From Candidatus Harrisonbacteria bacterium (lineage in GTDB: Bacteria; Patescibacteriota; Minisyncoccia; UBA6257; 02-FULL-45-10c), in NCBI GenBank assembly GCA_016192685.1, contig JACPTS010000001.1, positions 529,099-593,098 on the forward strand: DNA of 64,000 nucleotides, given 5' to 3'. Below, in pieces: positions 5,053 through 64,000 of the stretch. A program made the translations under genes and the position numbers. The notes below the pieces were generated by a model that worked only from the letters and a program-made list of their open reading frames with translations, made no database searches and was not told the DNA's origin. The number at the start of each line of letters is the position of its first letter. Positions within the stretch are counted from its first letter, which is position 1.

Positions 5053-5139
5053 CTTTGCGACAAACACCAAAACACGAGCAATGGCATCAATTACCATTTC
5101 GGTTAAGACCCCCTTGTTATCGGGCTGATTTTCCATAAA

Positions 5140-9449: not shown

Positions 9450-9710
9450 TCCTTTTAAATTTTTATTTTAAATAACCTTTTTAAGGTTATTCTATTTTTA
9501 TGAAAATCACAAGTCTAATCAGGCGAAATTCCAGGGTGTGGATAACCTGCGGATAAAAAAGCCATTTTAGCTTTATTTTTTAGCCTATTTTGGCGCTGGC
9601 TGGCATTGTTAAATTTTTAATCCAAGTGGGGTACAATTAAATGGTAGTGGGGAATTGTGGATAAGTATGGGGATAGAGCGTCAATCAGGGGATAAGTTCC
9701 ACTCGCTGTA

Positions 9711-9842
9711 CCTTTCTTTCTATCGGCACCGGCGTCGCTTCGCTCCAGCGGCGAAGCGCGCCTACGCCTCGCTCCGAAAATTTTCGCTTCGCGAAAAACC
9801 AATCTTTTTGGAGCTCCGTAGTTGCCGTACAAAAGAAAGGTA
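9711..9842 (+). repeat. GC-rich palindromic repeat element, family A, copy 1
   Basis: Core cggcaccggcgtcg...cgcctacgcctcgctccgaaa...ttcgcttcgcgaaa...ggagctccgtagttgccg with terminal inverted repeat acctttct/agaaaggt. Sits at the right edge of the integrative element. Confidence 0.7.
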
Positions 9843-9894
9843 AGCTCGCTAATTGTTGTTAGTTGTGGGTCGTTAGTCATAAGTCATAAGTCAA

Positions 9895-20129: not shown

Positions 20130-20155
20130 ATTTCAATTATATCACAGCAAAGTGA

Positions 20156-20291
20156 GCTACCTATCTGCCGTGCGGCAACTACGGAGCCGCAATTTGCTCG
20201 GTTTCGCCGAAGGCGAAAAATTGCGGCGAGGCGTAGGCGGCGCCGACCGCAGGAGTCGGCGAACGCCGGTGCCGATAGGCAGATAGGTAGC
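20156..20291 (-). repeat. GC-rich palindromic repeat element, family A, copy 2 (reverse orientation)
   Basis: cggcaactacggagc...gaggcgtaggcg...cgccggtgccg with terminal inverted repeat gctacctatctgcc/ggcagataggtagc. Confidence 0.7.
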
Positions 20292-20300
20292 GAGCGTCTT

Positions 20301-20327
20301 TTGGCACTCTATTGACAAGAGTGATAA
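20301..20327 (+). promoter_or_regulatory. CIRCE-like HrcA operator (imperfect)
   Basis: TTGGCACTC-N9-GAGTGATAA compared with consensus TTAGCACTC-N9-GAGTGCTAA, directly upstream of hrcA. Confidence 0.65.
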
Positions 20328-20347: not shown

Positions 20348-21052
20348 ATGGATTTAAGGAGAAAAACGGTTTTAGAAACAGCCATTAAAGAATATATTCG
20401 GAGCGGGGAGCCGGTAGGTTCTAAAGAACTCGCGAAAAAATACGATTTCGGCGTAAAAGCCGCGAGCATCCGGAATGAGCTTGGCCAACTTACCAAAGAC
20501 GGATTTTTAGCCCAGCTCCATACTTCCGGCGGCCGGGTGCCGACGGATAAGGGTTATCAGCTGTTCGTGGCATCTACGCTGGAAAATGTGGTGGAATCCA
20601 AAAAAATTCTGGAAGGCCGTTATGGGGCGCTGGCCGGCGATCTCCGCACTGGTAAACTGAAAGAATTCGTGGATGCTTTTTCCGGAGAAATGAAGCTTTT
20701 GGGCGTTGGCAAAAAAGAAAAAGAAATTCAGGCGTACAAGAGCGGCTTGAAGGATTTAGTAGAGCATTTAGATATTAGCACCAAAAAAGAAATGTCAGAG
20801 ATAGTGAACGATTTTGAATCATTAGATAGCCGGATTGACGAGGTGCGAGAGAAGATTTTTAATACCCTCCGTTTGCCCCAGGTATTTATCGGCAAAAGCC
20901 CGATTACCAAAAGCAAGAATCTTTCGGTGGTGATGGACAGCTTCAATATTAAAGATGGCAAGGTGCTGGTGGCAGTGATCGGGCCGAAGCGGATGGATTA
21001 TGATAAAACTTTAAAGGCATTTAAGCAGTTAAAAAATGAGTTAAAGAATTAA
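20348..21052 (+). CDS. hrcA: Heat-inducible transcription repressor HrcA (short form)
   Basis: N-terminal wHTH TVLETAIKEYIRSGEPVGSKELAKKY. 234 aa. Confidence 0.8.
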   Translation: MDLRRKTVLETAIKEYIRSGEPVGSKELAKKYDFGVKAASIRNELGQLTKDGFLAQLHTSGGRVPTDKGYQLFVASTLENVVESKKILEGRYGALAGDLRTGKLKEFVDAFSGEMKLLGVGKKEKEIQAYKSGLKDLVEHLDISTKKEMSEIVNDFESLDSRIDEVREKIFNTLRLPQVFIGKSPITKSKNLSVVMDSFNIKDGKVLVAVIGPKRMDYDKTLKAFKQLKNELKN

Positions 21053-21059
21053 TTTTTTT

Positions 21060-21207
21060 GATAGCTCTGCATATCTGCCTACCGGCACCGGCGTCGTTTC
21101 GCTCCTGCGGCGAAACGCGCCTACGCCTCGCTCCGAAATTTTCGCTTCGCGAAAGCCGAGCATTTCGGAGCTCCGTAGTTGCCGCACGGCAGATATCCAG
21201 AGCTATC
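21060..21207 (+). repeat. GC-rich palindromic repeat element, family A, copy 3
   Basis: ccggcaccggcgtcgtttcgc...cgcctacgcctcgctccgaaattttcgcttcgcgaaa...tttcggagctccgtagttgccg with terminal inverted repeat gatagctctgcatatctgcc/ggcagatatccagagctatc. Confidence 0.75.
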
Positions 21208-23679: not shown

Positions 23680-24504
23680 ATGGAAATAATAACAAAGAAA
23701 TTTTATTTAAAGCTTGGTTTATCAGAAAAAGATATTTTAGCTCTTAATAAAGAGCTTTCATTACTCGCTGGACTTAAATTAAGTCCATCTGCCAAACCTC
23801 GTCGTATAGAAATGTTACAAGAGGCCATTCGATGGCCAAAAGGTAAAAATCAAGAAAAAAGGAAAATAACGGAGCTTTATAAATCTGGTGATTTTATAGT
23901 TGCCGTTGGTAAACCAGGAAAAGAAGCGGCGCCAGCTTTCAAACGGAAACATTACATAACTGGCAAGATTACTAATAATCCAAATGACATGAACCCCTTT
24001 GTTATGAGGGGAGGTAAAAAAGTTGGGAATGATTTAACTTTTGCAGAATTATTTGAGCAAATTGAACATTTAATTCGAGCAGATTTACTTGGATTGGAAC
24101 TTTTAGGGATGCTTATATTCAGAATGGCTTTTATGTTAGATCACAAAAAAGATTTAAAGGGGAAATGGAGATATATTCCTCCGGAAAAATCTTTGGCAAT
24201 GCTTAAAAAACGACTCCCTAAAGTTGGCGATATTCCGGTAGATATATTTTTATATTTTCTCGATGTATTAGCTCTCAATGAGGATGTTAAGATGCATACC
24301 TTGGGTCATGAAAATGCTCGATATGATTATGGACGAGTCAATACTTTACTTACCTTTACTCACTTAATTGCAGTTTTATTAAATCGACGCTCTCTAGCAA
24401 AATTTGCTGGTACGTTTGCTCGGCCACCTTCGGGAATGGCTCCACTACCTAAAATAAAAGGACTTTTTGAAACTTATCCTCTTTTATCTCCAGATTTTGT
24501 TTAA
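23680..24504 (+). CDS. Hypothetical protein, possible PD-(D/E)xK nuclease
   Basis: 274 aa. Contains IPVD-x12-EDVK. Its 3' end overlaps the fused LexA-MTase gene by 4 nt in convergent orientation. Confidence 0.3.
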   Translation: MEIITKKFYLKLGLSEKDILALNKELSLLAGLKLSPSAKPRRIEMLQEAIRWPKGKNQEKRKITELYKSGDFIVAVGKPGKEAAPAFKRKHYITGKITNNPNDMNPFVMRGGKKVGNDLTFAELFEQIEHLIRADLLGLELLGMLIFRMAFMLDHKKDLKGKWRYIPPEKSLAMLKKRLPKVGDIPVDIFLYFLDVLALNEDVKMHTLGHENARYDYGRVNTLLTFTHLIAVLLNRRSLAKFAGTFARPPSGMAPLPKIKGLFETYPLLSPDFV

Positions 24505-25967
24505 ATTTTAATCCTTTTTCTTCCCAGAAATAATTTATGTTCTGGAGCAATGAAACCATTTGCGAGGCGTTTGTTTATTATGTCACAGTATTCTTTGTTG
24601 AGCTCGGCCGAAATAAATTGGCGATTTAAATTTCTGCATACATCTATTTCTGCACCACTACCACCAAAGAGAACTAAAACCTTATCTTTTGGCTTAGTTG
24701 ATGATTTAATAAACATTTCAGTTAATTTTTGTGGAATTTGACAAGCGTGAAAAGTTTTTTCTTTGCTGACATTTTTTACAAGATTAAACTCAAACCATGA
24801 GTAAGGCATTCTTCCCTTTGAGCCATTTGCCAGATTTTGACGAATTCTTCTGTCTGTTGGATTTTTATATGGTAACGCTACTGCGTCTTTGAAGAATTTA
24901 TTATCAGCACTTTTACGAACATGAAGTATGCTTCTGTGTGCTGTTGTGAATCTTTTTGGTGTATGTCCGACATTTGTATTATAAACCCAAACATACTCAT
25001 TAATATTAGGAAAATTTATATCTAAGTATTTTACGCGAAGATGTGCATTTTGTTGAGGATAGTTCATCATAAAAAGGTTCCCATCGTTTTTTAGAACTCT
25101 CATTGATTCCTTAGTAAGTTCGGTATACCAATTTAAATAATCGTCAAAATTTCTTGTATAGTTATTACTACCATATCTAATACCGACATTATAATCCGGA
25201 TCCCCAAAAATCATGTCAATGCTATTATTTGGCAGGTCTTTCAAAACATGCATTATATCGCCGTTGTAAACTTTATTGATATATTCAGAAATATTTCCAC
25301 GTTGTTGGGGGCTTTTTTTAGAGGGTAGAATAAATGATTGGTTTAATTGTTTTATCTTATTAGTTTCAATAACATCCAGCATAATTCCTTGAATATGAAA
25401 ATCTTGTCCGCGGCGCACAATTATCGGCTCCATTTTTTTATTTGCCGGTTGTAGACGAACTTGCCCGCGTTCTTTATAGAATTTTTTAAGCGTTGCTCCA
25501 CCATCAACTAAGGCCACAATTTTTTGACCATTTTCAGCAGTGCTTTGGTGGCGCACAAGAATTGTATCGCCATCATTAATATTTTCATCAATCATACTGT
25601 TACCAGCTACTTTTAAAGCGTAAATATTGCTATTGCTGGAATTGGGGAGTTTATTTTTAGGAATCGCTATATTTTCGCTTACAGTATCAAATAGTGTTAA
25701 TGGTTGACCGGCAGCAATAGTGCCCAGTAGGGGAATTTGAACCATTTGTTCATTTTGGTTAGATAATTCAATCCCACGAGAGATGTTATCATTTCGTCGT
25801 AAAAAACCTTTTTCTACAATCGCATCAATATGTTCCAATATCGTTGAGTGCGCGGAGAGGCGAAAATGTTTTTTAATTTCCTCCGTGGTAGGGGAAATAG
25901 ATTGTTTTTTAATAAAATCAGAAACAAAATCGTAAATTTGTTTTTGACGTCTTGTCAGTGTTGCCAT
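24501..25967 (-). CDS. Fusion protein: LexA-type repressor (wHTH plus S24 autopeptidase) fused to a beta-class N4/N6 DNA methyltransferase
   Basis: The N-terminal approximately 200 aa form a complete LexA: wHTH, hinge IPLLGTIAAGQP with the Ala-Gly scissile bond, Ser VAGNSM, Lys ATLKK. The C-terminal approximately 290 aa carry MTase motif IV (IFGDPDYN) ahead of motif I (VLFGGSGAE). Single uninterrupted ORF of 488 aa. Confidence 0.75.
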   Translation of the reverse strand: MATLTRRQKQIYDFVSDFIKKQSISPTTEEIKKHFRLSAHSTILEHIDAIVEKGFLRRNDNISRGIELSNQNEQMVQIPLLGTIAAGQPLTLFDTVSENIAIPKNKLPNSSNSNIYALKVAGNSMIDENINDGDTILVRHQSTAENGQKIVALVDGGATLKKFYKERGQVRLQPANKKMEPIIVRRGQDFHIQGIMLDVIETNKIKQLNQSFILPSKKSPQQRGNISEYINKVYNGDIMHVLKDLPNNSIDMIFGDPDYNVGIRYGSNNYTRNFDDYLNWYTELTKESMRVLKNDGNLFMMNYPQQNAHLRVKYLDINFPNINEYVWVYNTNVGHTPKRFTTAHRSILHVRKSADNKFFKDAVALPYKNPTDRRIRQNLANGSKGRMPYSWFEFNLVKNVSKEKTFHACQIPQKLTEMFIKSSTKPKDKVLVLFGGSGAEIDVCRNLNRQFISAELNKEYCDIINKRLANGFIAPEHKLFLGRKRIKI

Positions 25968-31726: not shown

Positions 31727-31753
31727 TTTAGCACTCTTGACGTAAGAGTGCTA
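31727..31753 (+). promoter_or_regulatory. CIRCE (perfect HrcA operator)
   Basis: TTAGCACTC-TTGACGTAA-GAGTGCTAA matches the consensus exactly. Lies upstream of the 31793 membrane protein and dnaJ. Confidence 0.85.
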
Positions 31754-31792
31754 ATTTGTTATTTTGTGGTATAATTAAATTAATTACCATTT

Positions 31793-41973: not shown

Positions 41974-42702
41974 ATGCAAGTTCGAAAAGCAATAATTTTA
42001 GCCGGCGGGAAAGGCACCCGGCTTTATCCGGTGACTTTGGAGACCCCGAAGCCGCTTTTAACCGTCAATAAAAAGCCGATTATCAATTATTTAATTGAGA
42101 TGTTTCGCCGGCATGGCGTTGAGGAAATTGCCGTGACGGTCCGGAAAAACGATTTTGATGATTTTTCTTGGTGGCTGCGGCGTTATCAGAATGATCTCGG
42201 CGGCGTTTGGGTGAATTTAATGATGGAGGAAGAATCAATGGGGACATTGGGTTTATGGGCTCATAGTTTGCATACTTGGACAGGGAATGAGCCATTCTTT
42301 TTGACTAATGGCGATGAACTTAAGGAAGTTAATCTTTCCGAAATGGCCGCCCAGCATCAAAAAACCGGTGGAATGGCGACTATTGCCGCAGTAGCAGTTT
42401 CGAATCCCAGTGAATATGGAGTATTGGTTTTAGATGGTAATTATATCCATAGTTTTTTAGAAAAGCCGAAAAATCCGCCGACTAATTTTATTTCCTCCGG
42501 ACTTTATCTTATTGACCCGAAGGTTCGAGAATACGTAAAAGAAGATTTAGCGGCTAATAAGAAATTTTTAATGATTGAAAAAGACCTTTTTCCGAAATTG
42601 GCAGCGGAAAAGAAACTCGTCGTTTATAAGTCAAGCGGCCGTTGGCACGATTGCGGAAATTTGCAAAGATGGGAAAAGGCGATTAAGGAGTGGGGGGTGT
42701 AG
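41974..42702 (+). CDS. Sugar-phosphate nucleotidyltransferase
   Basis: ILAGGKGTRLYPVTLETPKPLL signature. Confidence 0.8.
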   Translation: MQVRKAIILAGGKGTRLYPVTLETPKPLLTVNKKPIINYLIEMFRRHGVEEIAVTVRKNDFDDFSWWLRRYQNDLGGVWVNLMMEEESMGTLGLWAHSLHTWTGNEPFFLTNGDELKEVNLSEMAAQHQKTGGMATIAAVAVSNPSEYGVLVLDGNYIHSFLEKPKNPPTNFISSGLYLIDPKVREYVKEDLAANKKFLMIEKDLFPKLAAEKKLVVYKSSGRWHDCGNLQRWEKAIKEWGV

Positions 42703-42856
42703 CTTTATTTTACTCGCCGAATCTTTTCCCTCAACCCGTTTCGCTCATCCAGCGATTCGCTCACTTGTGCTCGTCGATTTGGTCGCCTGCGGCGACACCA
42801 TGCCAAATTGACTGCGCGGGTTTCGGAGAAAAGATATCGTCTCGTTCCAATAAAGC
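42702..42856 (+). repeat. GC-rich palindromic repeat element, family B, copy 1
   Basis: ttccctcaacccgtt...ctcacttgtgctcg...ctgcgcgggtttcggag with terminal inverted repeat gctttatt/aataaagc, immediately after the nucleotidyltransferase stop. Confidence 0.65.
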
Positions 42857-42927
42857 TATTTTTAGTGAAAGTTGTTATAAAAATGAAAAATCCCAACCGT
42901 AGCGGTTGGGATTGATTGAGAAAAAGA

Positions 42928-43197
42928 TTAGGGATTTCGGCGTTCCAGATCGCGGCAGTTTTGGTAGAGGAGGCTGTAAGCGGTAGATTGGCTTGAAAAA
43001 GAATTTGCTCTTACAGCGGAGAAACTTTCATTCTCTGCCTTTTTCATCTCTTGTAGCGCCTTTTCATGATATTGCTGGCAAGAATCGGGTTTGGCGGCGT
43101 GGGCTGTCTTTTTTTCAACAATTCCAATCAGCAGAAATAAATTTAATGCCATTAATCCAAGAGCGACAGCCGAGAGAACAGTAATGGTTTTATTCAT
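42928..43197 (-). CDS. Small secreted or membrane protein
   Basis: Signal/TM segment LSAVALGLMALNLFLLIGIV. 89 aa. Confidence 0.35.
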   Translation of the reverse strand: MNKTITVLSAVALGLMALNLFLLIGIVEKKTAHAAKPDSCQQYHEKALQEMKKAENESFSAVRANSFSSQSTAYSLLYQNCRDLERRNP

Positions 43198-43261
43198 TTT
43201 TCCTCCTTGCCCCGGTTTGATTTTCAGGAGCTGAGAGTAGTATATTATATAAATCTATAAT

Positions 43262-44671
43262 ATGTCAAATGTTAAAAGTAAAAAGTTAAAGGTATTTTGT
43301 GCAATGTCCGGCGGAGTGGATAGTTCGGTTGCGGCAGGCCTTTTGAAGCAGGAAGGATATGAAGTGATTGGGGCGCATATGAAATGTTGGAGTGATGGTA
43401 GCCCTACTTCGCCAAGGCTTCGAAGGGCGGATGCTTGCGCATCCGAGCAGGATGCGGAAGACGCGCGAAGAGCGGCGGAGGTTTTGGGCATTCCATTTTA
43501 TGTTTTTGATTTTGAAAAAGAATATAAGGAGAAAGTAGTGGAATATATGGTGGATGGGTACCGGCAGGGAATTACGCCAAATCCGGACGTGATGTGCAAC
43601 AAGGAAATCAAGTTCGGGCTTTTTTTGAAAAAGGCATTGGAAATGGGAGCGGATTATGTCGCTACAGGTCATTATGTTTGTTTGGTTGAGCGAAGAAACT
43701 TTATTCCCTCAACCCGTTCGTCCGCCACCGCGGACTCACTTGTGCTCGCTCGCTTTGCCGATCGAGGCTTTGCCAAAACGATCGGACCAGGCAAAGCGGC
43801 TGCGCGGGTTTCGAAGAATAAAGCTTCTTCGCTTTATGGAATTCAAAGTAGCTGCTCCGCCTGTGTTTCGTGCGGCAACTACGGAGCCCTGAAATGCTCG
43901 GATTTTTGCGAAGCAAAAAATTTTAGGGCGAGGCGTAGGCGCGGTCGCCCGCCGGAGGCGACCGACGCCGGTGCCGTCAGAAATGCAGGCGGAGCGGCAC
44001 TTTTTACAGCTAAAGACAAAAATAAAGACCAGTCCTATTTTCTTTGGACTTTGACGCAGGAGCAGTTGCGGCATTGCCTTTTTCCGATTGGGGATTATTT
44101 GAAGCCGGATGTTAGAAAAATGGCGCGGAAGTTTGGTTTGCCGAACGCGGAGAAAAAGGACTCGCAGGGGATTTGTTTTTTAGGCCAGGTAACGCTGAAA
44201 GATTTTTTGGGAAATTATTTGCCGGAAAAGCGGGGATTGATTTTAAATACTGTAGGCAAAGTTGTTGGTGAGCATCAAGGGGCGCATTTTTATACTATTG
44301 GCCAGCGAGGCGGCCTTGGATTGGGCGGACAGGTGAAACCGGTTTATATCGCAGAAAAAGATATTAAAGAAAATGCGATTTTGGTGGCGGAAGAAAATGA
44401 TGCAGTGCTTTATAAAAAAGAGATTGAACTGAAAAATGTTAATTTAATAAATTCTGAATTAAAAATTCTGAATCATGAATTATTGATTCCTATTTTTGTT
44501 AGAGTTCGTTATAGGCAGCCATTAGTAAAAGCGAAATTAGTTATATGCCGTATGCCGTATGCCACATGTAAACTTGTGTTTGATAAGCCTCAAAAGTTTG
44601 TCGCGGCCGGCCAATCCGCGGTTTTCTACAATGCGCGGGGCGCAATGTTAGGCGGAGGCACTATTGCGTAA
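43262..44671 (+). CDS. mnmA: tRNA 2-thiouridylase MnmA with an approximately 100-aa in-frame repeat-derived insertion
   Basis: PP-loop SGGVDSS, ATGHY, KDQSYFL. 469 aa versus about 360 aa typical. The extra segment between ATGHY and KDQSYFL coincides with GC-rich repeats B and A. Confidence 0.85.
   Translation: MSNVKSKKLKVFCAMSGGVDSSVAAGLLKQEGYEVIGAHMKCWSDGSPTSPRLRRADACASEQDAEDARRAAEVLGIPFYVFDFEKEYKEKVVEYMVDGYRQGITPNPDVMCNKEIKFGLFLKKALEMGADYVATGHYVCLVERRNFIPSTRSSATADSLVLARFADRGFAKTIGPGKAAARVSKNKASSLYGIQSSCSACVSCGNYGALKCSDFCEAKNFRARRRRGRPPEATDAGAVRNAGGAALFTAKDKNKDQSYFLWTLTQEQLRHCLFPIGDYLKPDVRKMARKFGLPNAEKKDSQGICFLGQVTLKDFLGNYLPEKRGLILNTVGKVVGEHQGAHFYTIGQRGGLGLGGQVKPVYIAEKDIKENAILVAEENDAVLYKKEIELKNVNLINSELKILNHELLIPIFVRVRYRQPLVKAKLVICRMPYATCKLVFDKPQKFVAAGQSAVFYNARGAMLGGGTIA
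43699..43990. repeat. Composite family B (43699-43833) plus family A (about 43860-43990, reverse) insertion inside mnmA
   Basis: ctttattccctcaacccgtt...ctgcgcgggtttcgaagaataaag followed by gcggcaactacggagcc...gaggcgtaggcg...gacgccggtgccg. Reading frame stays open. Confidence 0.7.
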
Positions 44672-46660: not shown

Positions 46661-47554
46661 ATGGAGAAAGTTGTTCAGGAAGATAAATTTAAATATTTAA
46701 GGATAAGTTTAGGATTATTAATTACGCTGGATATTTTAATTTGGGTTTCAATTTTATTTCCGGTTCGCCGGCTGGCGGAGAAAAATTTAGAGCTTTATTT
46801 TTTGGACGTCGGGCAGGGGGACAGTTCTTTTATCCGGCTGGTCGGTGGAGTAGATTTGCTGATTGACGGCGGGCCGCCGAATGGGCGATTAGAGAAGAAT
46901 TTAGAGAAGATTTTGCCTATTCAAGACCGCTATATTGATTTAGTAATGGTATCTCATCCGCAATTGGACCATTTCGGCGGATTGATTGAGGTTTTGAAAA
47001 ATTATAAAATTGGAGCGGTTTTAACCAGTAATCAAATAAGCAAGCAGGCAGCCTGGCAGGAATTAGAAAAAATTATTAAAGAAAAAGGAATTCGGCGGAT
47101 TATTTTAGCGGCCGGCGATAAAATTAAATATCAGAATTCACAATTAGATATTTTATCGCCGCGAACTTCAGACTGGGCAAAAGACATCAATGATTTGAGT
47201 TTGGTGGCGCTTTTACAATATCCTTACATACTTGAGAATGTAAGGGTGTTGTTTACGGGGGATATTAGCGGTAAAAAGGAAAAAGAACTGGCAGATTTAT
47301 ATGATTTAGATGTTGATATATTGAAAGTCAGCCATCACGGGTCGCGATTTTCTTCCGACAGCGCGTTTTTAGAAGAAGCCAGCCCGGCAGTTTCAGTTAT
47401 TGAAGTCGGCAAAAATTCTTACGGCCATCCGACATCGCAGGCGCTTGCCCGGCTGGCTAATTTTAGCAGCCAAGTTTATCGGACGGATAATGACGGATTA
47501 GTGAAGTTATTGATTGACGGCGGAAAGTTAAGGGTCTATGCCGCAAAGCAGTAA
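46661..47554 (+). CDS. ComEC-associated metallo-beta-lactamase-fold domain protein (separate ORF)
   Basis: DVGQGDSSFI, HPQLDHFGG (HxHxDH). N-terminal TM helix. Confidence 0.7.
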   Translation: MEKVVQEDKFKYLRISLGLLITLDILIWVSILFPVRRLAEKNLELYFLDVGQGDSSFIRLVGGVDLLIDGGPPNGRLEKNLEKILPIQDRYIDLVMVSHPQLDHFGGLIEVLKNYKIGAVLTSNQISKQAAWQELEKIIKEKGIRRIILAAGDKIKYQNSQLDILSPRTSDWAKDINDLSLVALLQYPYILENVRVLFTGDISGKKEKELADLYDLDVDILKVSHHGSRFSSDSAFLEEASPAVSVIEVGKNSYGHPTSQALARLANFSSQVYRTDNDGLVKLLIDGGKLRVYAAKQ

Positions 47555-50776: not shown

Positions 50777-50933
50777 AAAAAGCTTTGCCAAATTGTTTAC
50801 GGGAACCGGCGTCACTCTGCTCTAGCGGCAGAGTGCGCCTACGCCTCGGCTTCAAAACTCGCCCCACAGTGTGGGGCGAGAACAAGCTTTTGAAGCCTCC
50901 GTAGTTTCCCTACAACAACTTAGCAAAGCTTTT
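50777..50933 (+). repeat. GC-rich palindromic repeat element, family A, copy 5 (variant central hairpin)
   Basis: accggcgtc...gcgcctacgcctcggc...ctccgtagtt with central palindrome ctcgcccca-cagtg-tggggcgag. Terminal inverted repeat aaaagctttgccaaattgtt/aacaacttagcaaagctttt. Confidence 0.65.
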
Positions 50934-55860: not shown

Positions 55861-57405
55861 ATGCCTATTCAATTTATTCGTAAATTTGCGGCAAAAACCA
55901 TGTTAGTTGGCTTGATTTTGGCATCGCCGCTTGCCCTGAGCTTGCCGAATGGGCTGGCTTTTGCCCAAGAAGCCACTAATCAGGATAACGGCGGCAGTTT
56001 GGTAAAAAAATTTGTGGCGGCAGAACTGGTAACCGCGGAAGATTTAGGGATTGAAAATCCCGGCATTTTAACCCCCAACCCTTTTTATTTTGTAAAGAAT
56101 TTTCGGCGTTCCACGCTGCGAACTTTAACTTTCAACCCATTAAAGAGAGCGGATTTTGAGTTAGAGGTTTTAAATGAAAAAGCCGCGGAAATCAAATTAT
56201 TGCTGGAACTTAATCCGAAAAGCGAGTCTTTGGAATTTGCCGCGGCGAATTATCAATTTACTTTAGACCGCATGAAAACTGCCTTTAGCAATTTAAAAGA
56301 CTCCAGCAGCAATGCCGCCGTAAATCAGCTTTTAGATAAATTAACAAACAGAGCCCTGACTCATCTGCGGCTTTTTGATGAATTAAAAGGCAGGCTGGAT
56401 TTGGCCGGAAAAGAAAAAGTAGATTCTTTGCAGTCTAAGCTGGCAGGAGTTTTAGCTGATACTTTAGAGCGATTAGACAATCGGGAAAAATTAGTTTTGC
56501 GTTTGGAAAGGGCAATTGAGGCGCAAAGCGGCGGGCTTTTCAAGGAATTGCGTTTGGCCGAAATTTTGAGCTTCGCGGAAGAGCAATCCGAGTTCGGCTT
56601 CTTATTTAAGGAAGCGGTTTTGCCATTAGAGGAAAATTTGCTTTTGACTGCCCAGTTAAAATTTACTTCAGAAAAAATTGATTCAGTTTTGCCGGCGGTT
56701 TTGGAGCTTTTGCCGGGGGACAGTTCCCGAAGGATTAAGACTCTTGACCTGGCAAGAGAATATTTCAGCGATTCAGACCTTAGAAATGACATCGGGCAAA
56801 TCCGCCAGCTGCTTTTGGATTTAGCCGCCCGATCGCGCGATATCGGCAAGCCGGCAGCTGAAACAGCGGTTCGCGCCGCCGCCGAAGCAACCGGTTATTT
56901 AAAGAACGCTTTAACTGATTCCGGATTGCGTTCCAATTCCCTGAACACCTTGCTTTCCCGCGCGGAATTTAATTTAAAACAAGCGGAGGAGTCTTTGCGC
57001 GGAGGCCAGCCGGTTTCGGCTTTCGGGCAGGCGAGCATTGCTTCGGCAGCCGCCAAAAATGCCTTAAATCAGCTTAGCCAATATCAAAATGTGGAAAAAG
57101 CGATAAAAGATTTAAAAGCGGATTATGACGAGTTAATGGACTTGGCTTCCGGGAATGGATTAGATGGAGATAACGCGCCGGAATTATTTGCTTTGTTCGG
57201 GAAGCTGGAAAAATCTTTGGTGAAACTGGCAGATTTGGCGGTAAAGGATTCTAAGCCAGATCAAACCATGGCTGCTTTGCGGGAAACAAAAACAATTTTA
57301 TTGGAAGCAAAATATTTGCTGGGAAATTTGCTTCAGCAACTGGAAGAAGAGGCAGTTGCCAAGCGTTCTGCCAAGCCACTCATTGAAAGGGTGCTGCAAA
57401 AATAG
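55861..57405 (+). CDS. Secreted coiled-coil hypothetical protein
   Basis: Signal peptide MLVGLILASPLALSLPNGLAFAQE. 514 aa. Confidence 0.4.
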   Translation: MPIQFIRKFAAKTMLVGLILASPLALSLPNGLAFAQEATNQDNGGSLVKKFVAAELVTAEDLGIENPGILTPNPFYFVKNFRRSTLRTLTFNPLKRADFELEVLNEKAAEIKLLLELNPKSESLEFAAANYQFTLDRMKTAFSNLKDSSSNAAVNQLLDKLTNRALTHLRLFDELKGRLDLAGKEKVDSLQSKLAGVLADTLERLDNREKLVLRLERAIEAQSGGLFKELRLAEILSFAEEQSEFGFLFKEAVLPLEENLLLTAQLKFTSEKIDSVLPAVLELLPGDSSRRIKTLDLAREYFSDSDLRNDIGQIRQLLLDLAARSRDIGKPAAETAVRAAAEATGYLKNALTDSGLRSNSLNTLLSRAEFNLKQAEESLRGGQPVSAFGQASIASAAAKNALNQLSQYQNVEKAIKDLKADYDELMDLASGNGLDGDNAPELFALFGKLEKSLVKLADLAVKDSKPDQTMAALRETKTILLEAKYLLGNLLQQLEEEAVAKRSAKPLIERVLQK

Positions 57406-57414
57406 CCGGCAAAA

Positions 57415-57444
57415 AGGCGCGGCAACGCGCCTTTTTTATTTTTT
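57415..57444 (+). terminator. Rho-independent terminator
   Basis: aggcgcg-gcaa-cgcgcct followed by a long T-run. Confidence 0.65.
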
Positions 57445-57468
57445 GAAAATTCGTGATAAAATTTTTAT

Positions 57469-59232
57469 ATGAAATCAGAAGAGATTCGTAAAAGGTTTTT
57501 AAAATTTTTTGAAGAGCGCGGGCATACGATTGTTTCGTCTTCCTCTTTAGTTCCCGATGACCCATCGGTGCTTTTGACTACGGCCGGAATGCAGCAGTTT
57601 AAGCCGTATTATGTCGGTAAAGCCGACCCAATGAGGGATTTCGGTTCTCGGAATACGGCTTCGGCGCAAAAATGTTTCCGGACTTCGGATATTGATGAAG
57701 TCGGCGATCAAACTCACCTGACTTTTTTTGAGATGCTCGGTAATTTTTCTTTCGGCGGTTATTTTAAAAAAGAAGCAATCCGTTGGGCGTATGAATTTAT
57801 AGTTAATGAATTAGGCGTGAGCCGTGACCGGCTCACGGTAACTATTTTTGCCGGTGACCCTTCGGCAGGCTCAGGGCAAGTTATTCCGGAAGATAAGGAA
57901 TCGTATAGTATCTGGCATAAAGAAATCGGCTTGCCGGAATCGCGGATTAAAAAGCATGGCCGGCAGGATAATTTTTGGGGGCCGACCGGCAATGAAGGCC
58001 CTTGCGGCCCGACTACGGAAATTTACGTTGACGGCGTGGAGATTTGGAATTTAGTGTTTAATGAGTATTATTGCAAAGCTGATAAAACTTTAGAAAAATT
58101 ACCTTCGCCAGGCGTAGATACTGGAATGGGATTGGAGCGTTTAGCCGTAATGCTTCAAGGCGCGGGTAATGTTTTTGAAACGGATTTATTTCACCCCCTC
58201 ATTTCTAAATTAAGAGAGGTCGCTCCGAAGTTGCCGTACGAAACGCAGCCAGATCAGCCAGAGCGTATTCTTCGGATTTTGGCAGACCATCTCCGCGCTT
58301 CTATTTTTTTGATTGCTGATGGCGTACGGCCGTCCAATAAAGAAGCTGGCTATATTTTGCGGCGGCTTCTGCGGAGGATTTTGGTTTATGGCATTCAATA
58401 TGATATTCACGCGGATTTATTTCCGATGGCGGTTGATTTTGTAAAATATAATTACGGCGATTGGTATCCGGAGATCAAAAATACCAAAGAAATTTTAACG
58501 GTAATGCTGGAAGAAAAAACTAAGTTTGAAAAAGCGCTGGCGCTTGGAGTGAAAGAAATTGAAAAATATGAATCAATTTCCGCCAAAGACGCCTTTTATA
58601 TTTATGAAACTTTTGGCTTGCCGTGGGAACTTTTAAAAGAATTAGTGCCGGCAAAAGTGAAAAATTTGGCTAAAGAAGCTTTTGAAGAAGAATTTAAAAA
58701 GCATCAGGAAATTTCCCGCGCCGGATTGGAGAAAAAATTCGGCGGGCACGGTTTGATTTTGGACACCGGCGAACTTAAAGCTTCCACGCCGGAAGAAGTA
58801 GAAATTGTCACCCGGCTCCATACCGCCACTCATCTTTTGCAGGCGGCGCTTCGGAAAGTGCTGGGGCCGGAAGTTAAACAAATGGGTTCGGATATTACGG
58901 CCGAGCGGACACGATTTGATTTTTCTTTCAATCGTAAACTTACCGATGAAGAAATAAAAAAGGTGGAAGATTTAGTCAATGAAGCCATTCAAAAAGATTT
59001 GCCGGTGTCCTATCAGGAATTGCCGATTGCGGAAGCGAAAAAAACCAAAGCTCTGTATTTTTTTAAAGAAAAATATCCGGAACAAGTAAAAGTGTATTCC
59101 ATGGGGGAATTCAGCAAAGAATTCTGCGGGGGGCCGCATGTTACTAATACTTTAAGAGTTGGAAAGTTTAAGATTGCAAAGCAGGAGGCTGTTGGTTCGG
59201 GAATCAGACGGATACGTGGGGTTGTGGAGTAG
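57469..59232 (+). CDS. alaS: Alanyl-tRNA synthetase (short, lacks C-Ala domain)
   Basis: Catalytic domain plus editing-domain motifs HTATHLL and CGGPHV. 587 aa. The stop abuts the partial repeat A. Confidence 0.85.
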   Translation: MKSEEIRKRFLKFFEERGHTIVSSSSLVPDDPSVLLTTAGMQQFKPYYVGKADPMRDFGSRNTASAQKCFRTSDIDEVGDQTHLTFFEMLGNFSFGGYFKKEAIRWAYEFIVNELGVSRDRLTVTIFAGDPSAGSGQVIPEDKESYSIWHKEIGLPESRIKKHGRQDNFWGPTGNEGPCGPTTEIYVDGVEIWNLVFNEYYCKADKTLEKLPSPGVDTGMGLERLAVMLQGAGNVFETDLFHPLISKLREVAPKLPYETQPDQPERILRILADHLRASIFLIADGVRPSNKEAGYILRRLLRRILVYGIQYDIHADLFPMAVDFVKYNYGDWYPEIKNTKEILTVMLEEKTKFEKALALGVKEIEKYESISAKDAFYIYETFGLPWELLKELVPAKVKNLAKEAFEEEFKKHQEISRAGLEKKFGGHGLILDTGELKASTPEEVEIVTRLHTATHLLQAALRKVLGPEVKQMGSDITAERTRFDFSFNRKLTDEEIKKVEDLVNEAIQKDLPVSYQELPIAEAKKTKALYFFKEKYPEQVKVYSMGEFSKEFCGGPHVTNTLRVGKFKIAKQEAVGSGIRRIRGVVE

Positions 59233-59262
59233 GGGCCGCCGCAGGAGCAAGCGGACGCCGGT
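59222..59262 (-). repeat. Partial family A repeat (half element)
   Basis: gcaggagcaagcggacgccggtgccggtaggca resembles the copy 2 arm. Confidence 0.5.
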
Positions 59263-59295
59263 GCCGGTAGGCAAATAAGCAAAACGCCTAGCGGC

Positions 59296-60516
59296 ATGTT
59301 ATACTTAAAAGTGTTGAGCTTCCAAAAAATAAGAGAGTTTATTATCCGTTTATTCACCAAAAGCGATTCTTATTTATTGGTTGAAATTTTGAATCATTAC
59401 GTTCAAATTACCCTTTTTAGAGTTTATCCGGACGAAAAACTGATTTTCATAAAAAAATCCTGGATTAAGGAAGTGCCGGATTTTACTGCCTATAATATTC
59501 TTCAGGCGTTCAGTTTCCTTTTAAAGAAAGCCGGCAATCCGAACAAATATAAAATAATTTTAAGTTTGGATTCGTTTTTTGCCACCACTATTTATTCATC
59601 GGTGGCTTTAGTGCGCCCCCGCCCCAAGGAAATCATTGATGAGGCGGATATGGATAATTTGATTTCTCAGGCAATCTGGAGATTTTTTGACCGGCAGCGC
59701 CTGAAAGCCGCCAAAAAAATGGGTATTGATGATGTGGATGTGATTTTAAGCGATGTCCGGATCCGTGGCATTAAATTAGACGGCCACAAAATTATTAATC
59801 CCATCGGCTTTAAGGCTAAGGCGGTAGAAATATTTTTTAGCCAAACTTTTTTACCTAGGGAATTGCTGCGGGGCATCCGCGATTTTTTGCCGAAAGGAAA
59901 TATCGCGCTTATCACCGAAACCGGAACCGCGATGAGCCATATCCTTTCCAAAGCTCTGGGCCAAGACCGATTTTTGGTAGCCAATCTTTTTCCGGACCAA
60001 ACCGCGATTTTTTCCGCGTCCGCCGGGCGGCTCAGCCATCTGGATGATTTTGAATGGGGAGAAAAAGATTTAATTCATTTGCTCGGGCGTCATTTACAGG
60101 TTGACCCGGCCGCCGCCCGGCTTTTAGTTAAAAATTACGCCGACCGCAACGCTTCCGAAGGATTTCTCCGCCGGTTTGAAAATATTCTCTTTAAAGAATT
60201 GCAGATTTTTGCCAATGGACTGGAATCTTTAGTTCCGGAAGATAACAATCAAGTTTATCTGAATCCCTTTTTTACCCTTCCGCCGGTAGTTTTTTCGGAT
60301 AGATTCCAGAACCGGCTGCAAAAAAATCTGACCTTGCTGCCGTTATCCACAAATTTAATTACCGAAAAGCTCGGTTATGAGGTACAATTTAAAAAATCAG
60401 CCTCCGTGAAAAATCTTTGGACCGTTTTAGCCGCCTTTCTGGAGATAAATTTCCTGCCGCAAAATGATAAAATGAGCCATTTGGCTAATAGAAGAGTGAG
60501 GTGGCTGGTAACTTAA
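59296..60516 (+). CDS. Hypothetical protein
   Basis: 406 aa, no recognised motifs. Confidence 0.35.
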   Translation: MLYLKVLSFQKIREFIIRLFTKSDSYLLVEILNHYVQITLFRVYPDEKLIFIKKSWIKEVPDFTAYNILQAFSFLLKKAGNPNKYKIILSLDSFFATTIYSSVALVRPRPKEIIDEADMDNLISQAIWRFFDRQRLKAAKKMGIDDVDVILSDVRIRGIKLDGHKIINPIGFKAKAVEIFFSQTFLPRELLRGIRDFLPKGNIALITETGTAMSHILSKALGQDRFLVANLFPDQTAIFSASAGRLSHLDDFEWGEKDLIHLLGRHLQVDPAAARLLVKNYADRNASEGFLRRFENILFKELQIFANGLESLVPEDNNQVYLNPFFTLPPVVFSDRFQNRLQKNLTLLPLSTNLITEKLGYEVQFKKSASVKNLWTVLAAFLEINFLPQNDKMSHLANRRVRWLVT

Positions 60517-60524
60517 TTTTTTAA

Positions 60525-62108
60525 ATGAAAAAAATTTCAGTTAACAAAAGCGATGAGATAGCGGTCATCGTGGAAAAAATCATTGAAGCTCCGGAACAGG
60601 AGATTGTTTTAGCCATTCCCAAATTTTCTCATCTCGGCGAATCGCTTAGTAATTTTAATCTCTTAAAGAGAGAGGCGGATGCTTTGGAGAAAAAAATCAT
60701 TATAGAATCGGTAGATGACCATATTGTGGAACTGGCGGAAATGAGCGGCCTTACCGCTATTAATCCTTTTTTTGCCAAAAACAAGAGGCAATTTTCCGAT
60801 ATTTTAGGGCCAAAAACCGCGATTTCCGGAAAAAAGAAACCGGCGGTAAGCGTATTTCGGTCGGAATCAGCCGGGAAAAATTTGGAAGAAGAATTTGCTT
60901 CTTTGGAAGAAAGTCTGTACCGCGGGCCATTCGGAAGCAAGCGTTGGAAATGGAGAATTAAATTTCCCAAAATAAAATTTTCGGAGTTTTTTTTGGCCTT
61001 CGGCAGCCTGGCAATTTTAGCTATTTTAGTTTTTGCCGGCATGAAAGTTTTACCTCGGGCAAAGGTAATCATTGCCGCCCAGACCCAGGAGTGGGTTTAC
61101 AATGATTCCGTGACTACCGATAAGTCCGCTTCTTTGGATATCGTAAAAATGGCCATTCCGAACCAGATTTTTTCTCAGAAAAAGAATGTCAGCCTTAGAT
61201 TTCCGGCCAGCGGCAAGCGCCAGGTAGAAAAAAGAGCTTCGGGTATTGTCTCTATTTATAATAGTTATAGCTCTGACCCTCAGCCGTTGGTGGTACAGAC
61301 GCGGTTCGCGACTCCAGACGGCAAGCTTTTCCGTTTGGCCAAAGGCATTACTGTTCCGGGCGCGAAAATCGTGGAAGGGAAAATTATCCCTTCCAGCATT
61401 GAGGCAGAGGTGGTGGCCGACAAGCCGGGGCCGGATTATAATATCGGTCCGGTAAAATTGCTTACCATACCGGGTTTTAAAGGCACTCCTAAATACCAGG
61501 CATTTTATGGAGAATTAACCGGCAATATGAGCGGCGGGTTTGTCGGCGAAGTGTCTTATCCAACCGAGGATGATATTAAAAAAGCCAAAGCCAGTATCCA
61601 AAATGATTTGGAATCCGGAATTCGGACCGCGCTTCTCACTCAAATTCCTAAAGAATTTAAAGTTTTAGACGGTTCTTCCAGATATAAAATTTTGGAGCAA
61701 ACTATTGATTCCGAAGCGGACGCGAGCGGCTCTTTTGGAATTTTCAGCGAGTCGCAGATGACCATTATTGCTTTTAAAGAAGAAAATTTGAAAGAATTAT
61801 TAGTCCGCCGGGCCAGAAAAGATAATGGCGAGGATTTTGAAATCAGAACTTCCGGTCTTGAGTATGGTTTGGCGCGGGCGGATTTTGACCGCGGCCTTCT
61901 TTCCTTCCCGGTGAATTTTAAGGCGGTACTGGCGAGGAAAATTGATGCTGAGGCCTTAAAAAAGGCCATTGCCGGAAAGTCTGAATTGGAGTTAAAAGCC
62001 GCGGTTTTCGGATTGCCGGGCCTTAAAAGCGCTACCATCTCACTTTGGCCATTTTGGGTTAAAAACGTTCCGACTAATCCGGAAAAGATAAAAATTTCAG
62101 TTGAATAA
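60525..62108 (+). CDS. Hypothetical protein with an internal TM helix
   Basis: 527 aa. TM segment FFLAFGSLAILAILVFAGM. Confidence 0.35.
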   Translation: MKKISVNKSDEIAVIVEKIIEAPEQEIVLAIPKFSHLGESLSNFNLLKREADALEKKIIIESVDDHIVELAEMSGLTAINPFFAKNKRQFSDILGPKTAISGKKKPAVSVFRSESAGKNLEEEFASLEESLYRGPFGSKRWKWRIKFPKIKFSEFFLAFGSLAILAILVFAGMKVLPRAKVIIAAQTQEWVYNDSVTTDKSASLDIVKMAIPNQIFSQKKNVSLRFPASGKRQVEKRASGIVSIYNSYSSDPQPLVVQTRFATPDGKLFRLAKGITVPGAKIVEGKIIPSSIEAEVVADKPGPDYNIGPVKLLTIPGFKGTPKYQAFYGELTGNMSGGFVGEVSYPTEDDIKKAKASIQNDLESGIRTALLTQIPKEFKVLDGSSRYKILEQTIDSEADASGSFGIFSESQMTIIAFKEENLKELLVRRARKDNGEDFEIRTSGLEYGLARADFDRGLLSFPVNFKAVLARKIDAEALKKAIAGKSELELKAAVFGLPGLKSATISLWPFWVKNVPTNPEKIKISVE

Positions 62109-62170
62109 AATAGTAAAATAAGGGGATTGACTCTTAACTGCTCTTTATGTTATACTCTTAATCATCTGTT

Positions 62171-62395
62171 GTGGTAAATAATTCACCGAAAGGAAATTTT
62201 AAAGTGGATGGAATTGTTGAAGAGGCCTTACCGGGCGCCTTTTTTCGTGTTAAGACAGCTGTGGGGGGAGAAATTCTGGCGCATCTTTCCGGTAAAATGC
62301 GGATGCATTATATTAAAATTCTTCCGGGCGATCGGGTAATCATAGAAATGACCCTATATGACGATAAGCGGGGAAGAATCGTAAGAAGGCTATAA
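62171..62395 (+). CDS. infA: Translation initiation factor IF-1
   Basis: GIVEEALPGAFFRVKTAVGGEILAHLSGKMRMHYIKILPGDRV. Confidence 0.85.
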   Translation: MVNNSPKGNFKVDGIVEEALPGAFFRVKTAVGGEILAHLSGKMRMHYIKILPGDRVIIEMTLYDDKRGRIVRRL

Positions 62396-62523: not shown

Positions 62524-62907
62524 ATGAGAATCAGCGGAATCAACATACCGGACAATAAAAGAATAGAAATATCGCTTGCTTATTTGTATGGCATCGGGCC
62601 TGCTTTGGCTAGGAAAATTTTACAAGCGACTAAAGTTGACTTGGACAAACGCGCCAAAGATTTAACGCCGGAAGAAGTAAATAAAATTAAAAATTTCATA
62701 GAAAAAAATTACAAGATTGAAGGCGAACTTCGCCAGCTGTTGAAGCAAAATATCAATCTTCTGAAAGAATTGCAGGCCTACCGCGGGATAAGGCATTTAA
62801 GGCACTTGCCGGTAAGAGGGCAGCGAACCCGCACCAATTCCCGCACGGTTCGCGGCAATGTCAGAAAGACCGCCGGCAGCGGCAAGAGGAAAACAGAATT
62901 AAAATAA
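62524..62907 (+). CDS. rpsM: 30S ribosomal protein S13
   Basis: MRISGINIPDNKRIEISLAYLYGIG. Confidence 0.9.
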   Translation: MRISGINIPDNKRIEISLAYLYGIGPALARKILQATKVDLDKRAKDLTPEEVNKIKNFIEKNYKIEGELRQLLKQNINLLKELQAYRGIRHLRHLPVRGQRTRTNSRTVRGNVRKTAGSGKRKTELK

Positions 62908-62950
62908 GACTTATAAGTCTTATGGGTCTTATTGGACTTATATATAAAAA
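62904..62950. repeat. Palindromic repeats in the rpsM-rpsK intergenic region
   Basis: ataagacttataagtcttat is a perfect 20-bp palindrome, followed by gggtcttattggacttat. Confidence 0.55.
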
Positions 62951-62952
62951 CT

Positions 62953-63405
62953 ATGGGCAAGAAAAAAGTAATCCAACAAACTCAAGAGGAGGCATTAAAA
63001 GAAAAAGAAGTTTTAGAGCGGAGTTTGGCAAAAACTGCCGGCAAAGCTTCTGCCAAAAAATTGGGAATGGGCAATGTTTACATCGGCGCTTCTTATAATA
63101 ATACGATTGTTACGGTGACCGATGAAAAAGGCGATGTGGTTGCCTGGGCATCGGCTGGTTCGCTTGGATTTTCCGGTCCGAAAAAAGCCACGCCTTTCGC
63201 CGCTTCCAAAGTAGTTTCCGCCATTGCGGAAAAATTAAAAAAAACCGGTTTATTGAATGTAAATGTTTTTGTAAGCGGGGTGGGAAGCGGCCGGGATTCC
63301 GCCATCCGTTCTTTCGGCAATCAGGGATTTAATATATTATCAATCAAAGATATGACTCCGATCCCCCATAACGGGCCAAGGCCGAAAAAAGTTCGGAGAG
63401 TATAA
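62953..63405 (+). CDS. rpsK: 30S ribosomal protein S11
   Basis: C-terminus TPIPHNGPRPKKVRRV. Start set at the internal Met (MGKKKV). Confidence 0.85.
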   Translation: MGKKKVIQQTQEEALKEKEVLERSLAKTAGKASAKKLGMGNVYIGASYNNTIVTVTDEKGDVVAWASAGSLGFSGPKKATPFAASKVVSAIAEKLKKTGLLNVNVFVSGVGSGRDSAIRSFGNQGFNILSIKDMTPIPHNGPRPKKVRRV

Positions 63406-63409
63406 TAAA

Positions 63410-63445
63410 TAGGACCTATAAGACTTATAGGTCCAATAGGACTTA
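63410..63445. repeat. Palindromic repeats in the rpsK-rpsD intergenic region
   Basis: gacctataagacttataggtcc shares the taagacttata core with the 62904 element. Confidence 0.55.
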
Positions 63446-64000
63446 TGTTCAATACCAAAGAAAAAAAGGAACGGGCATTAGGGGTAAAACTTTTTTTGAA
63501 AGCGCATCGTTGTAATTCGCCAAAATGCGTAATGTTAAGGCGGCCGCACCGCCCCGGCCTTCACGGCAAAGCCAGGCATGTTTTATCGGAAGTCGGCCAA
63601 CAGCTTCAGGAGAAGCAAAAAATTAAAGTAAGTTATGGTTTAAGGGAATCTCAAATGGGGAAAATTTTTCGGAAGGCAGTTAAGAATCCCGGCGTCACCG
63701 GAGAGATGATAATTCAATTGTTGGAACGCCGTTTAGATAATGCCGTATTCAGGCTTGGCCTTGCCCCTTCCCGGTCAGTAGCGCGGCAATTAGTCAGTCA
63801 TGGCCATATTTTAGTGAATAGCCGAAAAGTCAGCATTCCGTCTTATTTGGTTAAAATCGGCGATCAAATCAGCGTCCGTCCCCAATCAAGAGAAAGCGGC
63901 TCTTTAAAAGGATTAAGCGAGTGGTTAAAAAATTATCAAGAGCCGGTTTGGCTGAAATTAGAAAAAGATAGCGGGGTTGGCAGGGTGGTAGCCTTGCCGA
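63446..64000 (+). CDS. rpsD: 30S ribosomal protein S4 (partial, runs off the window)
   Basis: Starts MFNTKEKKERALGVKLFLKAHRCNSPKC... and continues in frame to the window edge. Confidence 0.8.

Follow-up and report, generated by a model that had tools for sequence, protein, structure and literature searches.

Probable acquisition of two hairpin repeats, in frame, by the mnmA gene of a Candidatus Harrisonbacteria bacterium

The gene for tRNA 2-thiouridine(34) synthase, mnmA, in Candidatus Harrisonbacteria bacterium lies at positions 43262–44671 (+) of the 64,000-nt stretch of DNA analyzed here (contig JACPTS010000001.1, positions 529,099–593,098, forward strand; hereafter the window) and specifies a protein of 469 amino acids. 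Some 96–100 of these residues are additional to the usual enzyme and are located between the ATGHY and KDQSYFL motifs, which raises the question of what this segment is, how it came to be there and whether it is translated. The answer that we consider likely is that two non-autonomous hairpin repeats were acquired in a single loop of MnmA and are read through, the elements themselves being mainly intergenic and their turnover at this site fast. The main feature of the locus is a site-specific hotspot, not a genome-wide invasion of genes.

A preliminary description of this DNA had reported an extra in-frame segment of about 100 residues between the two motifs of the 469-residue MnmA, and on this the open reading frame (ORF), the Pfam domains and the alignment to a known structure agree. 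The PF03054 domain (tRNA_Me_trans, HUP) is split into two stretches; PF20259 and PF20258 (M and C domains, PRC-barrel/C-terminal barrel) are intact. Screening of the PDB with phmmer returned 2hma, 2der and 9hlv, and in the alignment with 2hma, from Streptococcus pneumoniae, MnmA residues 6–141 match residues 7–135 and residues 245–468 match 143–363, about 103 residues standing in the place of 7. The loop from TGHY to KDQSYFL comprises 116 amino acids, as against 15–25 in uninserted bacterial homologs. The catalytic motifs (SGGVDS, the cysteine of CNKEIKF and the cysteine of GICFLG) are all intact, and at least 90 alignment columns are invariant.

The same description had derived the segment from two dispersed palindromic repeat families, B and A, with the frame left open, and covariance models of the two families bear this out. 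The family B element occupies nucleotides 43688–43836 (+; model R2, 129.8 bits) and encodes ...RRNFIPSTRSSATADSLVLARFADRGFAKTIGPGKAAARVSKNKASSL; its closing stem, AGCGAAGAAACTTTATTC / GAATAAAGCTTCTTCGCT, is 18 nt long and 94% complementary. It is followed by the family A element, a three-way-junction element at 43854–43998 (+; model R1, 158.8 bits) which encodes CSACVSCGNYGALKCSDFCEAKNFRARRRRGRPPEATDAGAVRNAGGA. The order, B and then A, is that first proposed, although the two elements are not fused at 43699–43990 as had been described: direct reading of the sequence with the model boundaries places a spacer of 17 nt, encoding approximately YGIQSS, between them (43837–43853, +), and those coordinates fell about 10 nt short at each end. 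Family B, spacer and family A together keep the host frame and contain no stop codon. The inserted DNA has a predicted fold energy of -160 kcal/mol (z = -9.8 against dinucleotide shuffles) and a GC fraction of about 0.55–0.63, compared with 0.41 for the window. An extra segment towards the N-terminus of MnmA (DGSPTSPRLRRADA, approximately 43395–43440) was also considered as a structured insert and was ruled out (z = -0.95).

The locus might in principle be a decaying pseudogene, or a chimeric or mis-assembled one, with its frame open by chance. About 10% of random family A insertions would keep the frame and stay open (one third by length, multiplied by about 0.3 for an open frame), and frame-preserving insertions should not be rare, because 30% of frames are open in intergenic family A copies as against 12% in shuffled sequence; the frame most often open in the intergenic copies is also the one most used in mnmA. 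This explanation is nevertheless scarcely credible. An identical mnmA ORF, insert included, was recovered in six contigs from at least three SRA runs, and since these were assembled independently an assembly artefact is unlikely; neither a frameshift nor a stop, either of which would have undone the preliminary description, was found. The catalytic motifs, moreover, are intact, both of two adjacent elements are open, and the same phenomenon recurs in dozens of lineages in which the gene is intact.

The combined insert has a length divisible by three and holds no stop in the host frame, so that the ribosome most likely translates through it; this would yield a functional MnmA carrying a basic, cysteine-rich and probably disordered excursion of about 100 residues. 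The alternative is that no translation of the insert occurs: an intron or intein-like element would be taken out, or the ribosome would bypass the segment, and mature MnmA would be of normal length. The very stable predicted fold of the insert would suit such a process, and in yeast mitochondria GC-rich hairpin insertions are indeed bypassed by ribosomes. We regard this as very improbable all the same: all of the insert-bearing mnmA genes examined keep their frame and lack stops, whichever way the element points and across several unrelated families of element, which splicing or bypass would not need; a self-splicing RNA could not tolerate the occurrence of both orientations; no group I or group II intron or ribozyme in Rfam and no intein domain in Pfam was matched; and the same elements are common in intergenic DNA.

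Within the protein the elements are taken to have entered codons at the tip of a beta-hairpin on the surface. In an AlphaFold2 model built on a 29-sequence alignment, residues 146–242 form a low-confidence excursion (predicted local distance difference test, pLDDT, <50) at a beta-hairpin tip, between the strands at 138–143 and 245–249; outside this segment the model can be superposed on 2hma, 2det and 2der (target-normalised template modeling (TM) score of about 0.87), and the core fold is retained. The insert is therefore modeled as what is probably a disordered surface-loop excursion of approximately 100 residues. Its peptide is basic and contains a cysteine pattern, C-x2-C-x2-C-x9-C-x3-C (nucleotides 43850–43925, MnmA residues approximately 197–221), derived from family A. 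The pattern is partly present in the mnmA copy of contig L084; because the same frame of other family A copies lacks it, it is probably incidental, with a metal site as the lesser possibility.

The two families were then defined beyond mnmA. The window holds five full family A copies, the mnmA copy included, and two family B copies in 64 kb, which for family A amounts to about one per 13 kb. The other four full family A copies are intergenic and were all detected with model R1: at 9702–9846 (-; 155.4 bits); at 20154–20296 (+; 147.3 bits), just upstream of a CIRCE operator and hrcA; at 21061–21203 (-; 152.8 bits), 9 nt past the hrcA stop codon; and at 50779–50929 (-; 142.7 bits), this last belonging to a divergent subfamily. 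A partial copy, representing the 3' half, lies just past the alaS stop codon at 59237–59281 (+) and was recognized through repeat families D6, I7 and I11, by alignment and by a weak R1 match (14.7 bits). The second family B copy, also intergenic, is at 42710–42848 (+; R2, 153.8 bits); its outer stem, at approximately 42703–42859, takes in the TAG stop codon of the upstream nucleoside triphosphate (NTP)-transferase gene. A scan of the window for further elements as islands of high GC content proved too unspecific.

Both elements are of similar size (about 145 nt for family A and 150 nt for family B), each with a long closing stem and a three-way junction. With a DNA pattern taken from two invariant family A motifs, 42 metagenome contigs were found, the majority of them from samples of groundwater type, and the family A covariance model aligned 48 copies, 43 of them distinct. 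The consensus is a three-way junction closed by a helix of 14 bp and containing a 5-bp helix and two hairpins, a long one and one of 13 bp, with invariant junction stretches GCGGCAACUACGGAG, GAGGCGUAGGCG, CCGCNGGAG and ACGCCGGUGCC. In this alignment, which was fitted to the model, 97.4% of cells are standard pairs, as compared with 37–44% when the partners are slid, double-sided changes occur at 45 of the 53 pairs, and none of 500 shuffles reached any of the measures. All 14 closing-stem pairs show double changes, the stem being always there and its sequence varying from copy to copy. Along the '+' strand there are 85 G.U pairs to 17 A.C, and this excess suggests that one particular strand of family A is the one that folds. 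In about 45% of the copies 5'-GA and GA-3' flank the closing helix, with 2–4 further pairs beyond, and the other copies extend palindromically through TA; the GA...GA borders read better as tandem G.A within a longer helix than as a target-site duplication. Family B is of similar architecture, built from a closing stem and two hairpins, one small and one long, and its RNAalifold consensus contains 43 pairs, 18 of them with compensatory changes. It is rare, with four strong copies in 1.28 Mb, three of which are within mnmA genes.

Sequence comparison of the mnmA copies themselves points the same way. Between the family A copies in mnmA of the window and of L084 the peptide differs (RRRRGRPPEATDAG vs RRRSRLPQERADSG), and eight pairs have changed on both sides with none broken. 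It is the nucleic-acid structure, and not the peptide, that is conserved in families A and B. Neither family matched an entry in Rfam 15; in the window only tRNAs reached the gathering score, and the best match in 42600–44100 was nrdJ, whose 17.8 bits fall short of the cut-off of 40.3. A collection of viral contigs scanned with the family A pattern gave no matches.

The distribution of the copies is largely intergenic. In a gene-blind sample of DNA only one of about 46 family A copies fell inside a long, real ORF, and of 31 intergenic cases 23 have on their 3' side a gene that runs on the opposite strand and whose stop codon is 0–10 nt off; the stop codon sometimes falls within the outermost stem of the element. 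The copy that follows hrcA (21061–21203) is found at the same position in the syntenic contigs L098 and L103 of distant relatives, where the neighboring gene has 66% nucleotide identity; the element is conserved better than this flanking gene and its differences from the window copy are compensatory. Elsewhere a single address may be occupied by different families: the spacer downstream of the NTP-transferase gene holds family B (+) in the window (42703–42859) and family A (-) in the syntenic contigs L116 (716–860) and L104 (1593–1737), with conserved flanks. Contig L116 ends about 47 nt past the equivalent of nucleotide 43677, where the insert in mnmA would start, consistent with assemblies breaking at repeats. 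The hrcA gene itself (20348–21052) has a family A copy on each side, the two in opposite orientations, with the CIRCE operator (TTGGCACTC-N9-GAGTGATAA, 20301–20327) between the upstream copy and the gene; a second, perfect CIRCE lies at 31728–31754.

These data bring in the main rival to the acquisition of hairpin repeats proposed above, namely that family A, and perhaps B, has a function as a structured motif, in RNA or in single-stranded DNA, that the host or a resident system uses; the copies in mnmA would then persist on account of what their structure does in the transcript or at the locus, the MnmA peptide being a tolerated by-product. Such a motif might stabilise mRNA 3' ends, mark a site of processing, bind a protein or serve as a site of recombination. 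It would account for the extreme covariation and the invariant junction motifs of family A, for the preponderance of G.U over A.C on one strand, for the shared orientation of the 23 intergenic copies relative to the gene that ends beside them, for the retention of the post-hrcA copy between genomes and for the co-changing pairs under a changing peptide in mnmA. Covariation, strand asymmetry, constancy of position and orientation and deep conservation all speak for selection acting on structure. Set against it are the absence of any match in Rfam and the fact that the covariation was measured on an alignment fitted to the model. We hold this explanation to be possible, though appreciably less probable than the one preferred; the diversity of the MnmA loop, to which we turn now, bears on it in both directions.

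The 118 closest MnmA homologs, all from metagenome-assembled genomes (MAGs) of Patescibacteria, have loops of 15–116 amino acids, and in 93 of them the loop is enlarged. The lengths fall into groups of 15–26 residues (25 proteins), 27–46, 55–71, which corresponds to about one element, and finally two proteins at 108 and 116. Eighty GTDB mnmA loci were retrieved with tblastn and not through gene calls; all 80 loops are in frame and free of stops, approximately 26 of them being at least 30 residues long. When the loop DNA was folded and compared with shuffles, loops of 30 residues or more mostly gave z values between -2.5 and -9.4, and those of 27 or fewer gave values of about 0. By BLASTP against a six-frame library made of intergenic copies only, ten loops were assigned to family A in reverse, three to family A forward, four to family B forward and one to family B in reverse. 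When the loops were clustered, 20 of them formed a reverse-A superfamily (ISxGTG...RTKHTEKL and relatives), and there were 38 other clusters. The family B frame used in the window (RRNFVPSTR...) recurs in the MnmA proteins P0025, P0060, P0082 and P0090. Close relatives with the same segment but devoid of repeat similarity, which would have told against an origin in repeats, were not seen; in relatives the site is empty, or holds A alone, B alone, A or B reversed, or hairpins of other families.

That inserts encoding hairpins of many unrelated families should share one loop would be in keeping with a functional motif. However, both orientations are found at the same coding and intergenic sites, which is hard to square with a strand-specific RNA role there, unrelated families replace each other at one site, and many close relatives lack the insert, which is accordingly not required for mnmA. 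These points speak against a role peculiar to mnmA. Smaller lineage-specific inserts also occur in the MnmA of Patescibacteria after KCWS, after IGQR (e.g. PPRRPQGVGAP) and near the C-terminus (PSxSSGR...), and their recurrence suggests further short insertions of the hairpin type at other permissive loops.

Turnover at the main loop is rapid and, on the reading preferred here, driven in part by recombination. Mapped onto a neighbor-joining tree of the MnmA core, itself weakly resolved, the class of insert requires 81 changes by Fitch parsimony. The most telling pair is P0096 and P0118, which are about 99% identical outside the loop and have unrelated loops: P0096 (L131, 479–790) carries a 66-residue reverse-A loop and P0118 (L132, 1939–2170) a loop of 39 residues that consists of CTGACA/TGTCAG hairpin repeats. 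The two DNA sequences agree fully as far as CATTATGTTCG and once more from AATAAAGACC onwards, a few host codons belonging to the exchanged cassette, a pattern that indicates cassette replacement at the level of strains. The family A copy in mnmA of the window has 93% identity to intergenic copies on other contigs (L114, L117, L118), 83% to the mnmA copy of L084 and 59% to the copy at 50779–50929, the only other window copy compared. These values indicate recent acquisition or conversion and not simple vertical descent.

Under the preferred reading, that hairpin repeats were acquired by mnmA, the elements would be primarily residents of intergenic DNA, usually next to a stop codon, and the MnmA loop would be among the very few coding sites that tolerate them, so that purifying selection would leave only insertions that are in frame and open. 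The cassette in the loop would be replaced whole, probably by homologous recombination through the conserved GHYV and KDQSYFL flanks or else by re-insertion, and fast turnover of this kind would explain why close relatives hold family A, family B, either orientation, other hairpins or nothing.

Residence of family A in frame outside mnmA does exist, but it is rare. Contig L115 is syntenic with nucleotides 56567–62275 of the window (84–91% nucleotide identity), and its alaS gene contains a full family A copy (+) in frame (L115, 1644–1788), encoding ...PPVFRAATTELQK...PTEMQAEH..., which falls between the parts of the protein that align to residues 5–247 and 262–427 of Aquifex AlaRS. In the alaS gene of the window (57469–59232), local alignment revealed at 58221–58247 (+) a 27-nt remnant of family A in reverse orientation, 24 of its 27 bases matching the 3' part of the element on the (-) strand (score 39, against a maximum of 25 in 500 shuffles). 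Here the window has only 14 residues, the remnant among them, where L115 has the full forward copy: the same address, the opposite orientation and a different degree of completeness. Two other candidates were rejected, a 24-nt extra segment of the window alaS (57859–57882), which is not clearly palindromic, and a hairpin at 47365–47470 in a metallo-beta-lactamase gene, which has a z value of only -2.5 and encodes conserved sequence of that family.

Searches for other host proteins added little. A phmmer search with the 105-residue insert peptide against 1.84 billion representatives gave only five short proteins of 44–152 amino acids and no further host protein; these five are most likely ORF calls over intergenic copies. 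In the window, element-derived peptide was detectable by BLASTP in MnmA only. A search with a concatenated six-frame pseudo-protein of families A and B returned only its self-match, arginine-rich low-complexity words having probably saturated the candidates, and a search with a profile of the reverse-frame family A peptide gave 56 candidates, none of which scored, the word index being unsuited to profiles of about 45 residues. The statement in the preliminary description that palindromic repeats colonise coding sequences is too broad, given that in the gene-blind sample one in about 46 family A copies lies in an ORF and that the 1.84 billion representatives yielded no other large protein with the peptide.

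Several observations weigh against acquisition and read-through as proposed here. No convincing variable direct repeat, as would be expected of a target-site duplication, was found at the family A copies, and no transposase or other mobilising gene was present among the window ORFs scanned; as a consequence the term insertion is drawn from the distribution of the copies. The swap between P0096 and P0118 points to recombination through conserved flanks rather than to transposition or precise excision and insertion, because the exchanged cassette takes host codons with it. The deep structural upkeep of orthologous intergenic copies would be unusual for decaying selfish DNA and hints at a function at the level of the host or of the element for which the present explanation makes no provision. 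The analysis thus establishes the identity of the repeats, their covarying structure, a frame kept across lineages, the turnover of the site and, as predictions, where the loop lies and that it is disordered; translation of the insert, activity of the enzyme that bears it and the route of acquisition are what we infer, the first two from preservation of the ORF. Finally, the low pLDDT of the insert is weak evidence for true disorder, because only 29 sequences entered the AlphaFold2 alignment.

A bolder reading, which we put forward as a tentative and rather unlikely one, is that family A, family B and the other hairpin families form a new class of structured mobile module that folds as a single strand and occupies fixed sites. 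The three-way junction, its closing helix often continued through tandem G.A, would be kept by selection on structure, and cassettes would be exchanged at fixed addresses, these being spacers close to stop codons and a few permissive loops of tRNA-handling enzymes (MnmA, AlaRS). The exchange might use a structure-specific recombination system or recombination during natural competence.

Among known systems, the Rickettsia palindromic elements (RPE-1 to RPE-10; Ogata et al. 2000, 2002, summarised in PMC10969869) were the comparison first drawn for this locus. The analogy is apt insofar as both are dispersed palindromic repeats of about 100–150 bp that lie in frame in housekeeping genes with the ORF preserved, add peptide at a structurally permissive place, here a predicted one, comprise several families and inhabit small, reduced genomes. 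It is a likeness of functional kind; the phylum (Patescibacteria/Paceibacteria) is unrelated. It also has its limits: the present elements are mostly intergenic and do not have the high intragenic share of the Rickettsia elements, what is conserved is a structure (a three-way junction with pervasive compensatory change) and not a peptide, and one loop of one protein serves as a hotspot for several families in two orientations with strain-level turnover. Nor is this a second lineage with such fusions, as had been suggested; that claim was wrong because in-frame fusions are already listed for ERIC, BOX, QMITE1 of Coxiella and the miniature transposable elements with inverted repeats (MITEs) of Anabaena besides those of Rickettsia (PMC10969869).

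ERIC, BOX, QMITE1 and the Anabaena MITEs are likewise small, non-autonomous, hairpin-forming and mostly intergenic, occasionally lying in frame in genes. The terminal inverted repeat of family A, in contrast, covaries without conservation of sequence between copies, no target-site duplication was found, and the scan of window ORFs brought up no parent insertion sequence. Repetitive extragenic palindromic (REP) sequences, with the related bacterial interspersed mosaic elements (BIMEs) and REPINs and the REP-associated tyrosine transposases (RAYTs) that go with them, resemble the present elements in being extragenic palindromes just past stop codons and in having hairpins recognised on one strand, and the G.U/A.C asymmetry of family A is compatible with single-strand folding as in REP. 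REPs, however, are simple hairpins of 20–40 nt that carry a conserved GTAG-type motif and normally stay untranslated, whereas the elements here are three-way junctions of about 145 nt, and no RAYT, IS200-type or Y1 transposase was found among the window ORFs scanned. Integron attC sites share the keeping of structure under variable sequence, a position at or overlapping the upstream stop codon and cassette-like replacement at a fixed site. They differ in that here there is no integrase, attI or cassette array and the flanking genes are core housekeeping genes; attC sites, moreover, are simple imperfect hairpins with extrahelical bases, lacking a three-way junction and long invariant motifs. 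The GC-clusters or 'byp' elements of mitochondria and phage T4 gene 60 provide further cases of GC-rich hairpin insertions in essential coding sequence of an AT-rich genome. Such insertions disrupt the reading frame, and the ribosome passes over them; in the present case the frame is kept in every instance, which implies read-through. Nothing relevant on such elements in the candidate phyla radiation (CPR), Patescibacteria or Parcubacteria was found in the literature searched.

Several other features of the window were recorded. Intergenic structured elements occur at 3300–3427 (118 nt with a 17-nt closing stem; z = -6.3) and at 5128–5193 (a hairpin with a perfect 21-bp stem; z = -8.0), and these may be further repeat families, or the second a terminator. 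Between 27950 and 29226 a 144-nt direct repeat is present twice, 92% identical and 1115 nt apart, and shorter repeat families of 33 and 71 nt (AAAATTCCCTTTCCTGAAAATTT-type) flank small ORFs in the same region. Two short arrays of 9–10-nt units resembling ATAAGACTTAT lie in inverted arrangement on either side of the ORF at 62932–63405 (62892–63449 in all). A large serine recombinase of 535 amino acids (1134–2741, -; Resolvase, Recombinase and Zn_ribbon_recom domains) overlaps tRNA-Val (1123–1195) with its 3' end, an arrangement typical of an element integrated at a tRNA gene; it is unrelated in position to families A and B. The 488-residue ORF at 24501–25967 (-) is an unusual fusion of LexA DNA-binding, Peptidase_S24 and N6_N4 DNA methylase domains.

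Patescibacteria, the bacteria of the CPR, have streamlined genomes of tiny size that are supposed to contain few repeats. A repeat family at about one copy per 13 kb, with strong covariation and no Rfam entry, cuts against that picture. Its occurrence in frame in essential tRNA-related enzymes, together with a loop that swaps unrelated hairpins between near-identical strains, extends the Rickettsia paradigm of selfish DNA in proteins to a second major group of reduced genomes and offers a natural system for studying how proteins gain new segments. It is also a warning for the annotation of MAGs of this group, in which length outliers and short 'hypothetical' ORFs can stem from such elements and contigs may break at them. 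Should the structure prove functional, it would represent a new class of RNA or DNA motif; and if the elements are exchangeable structured modules, they could be a source of rapid, strain-level variation of protein loops in reduced genomes.

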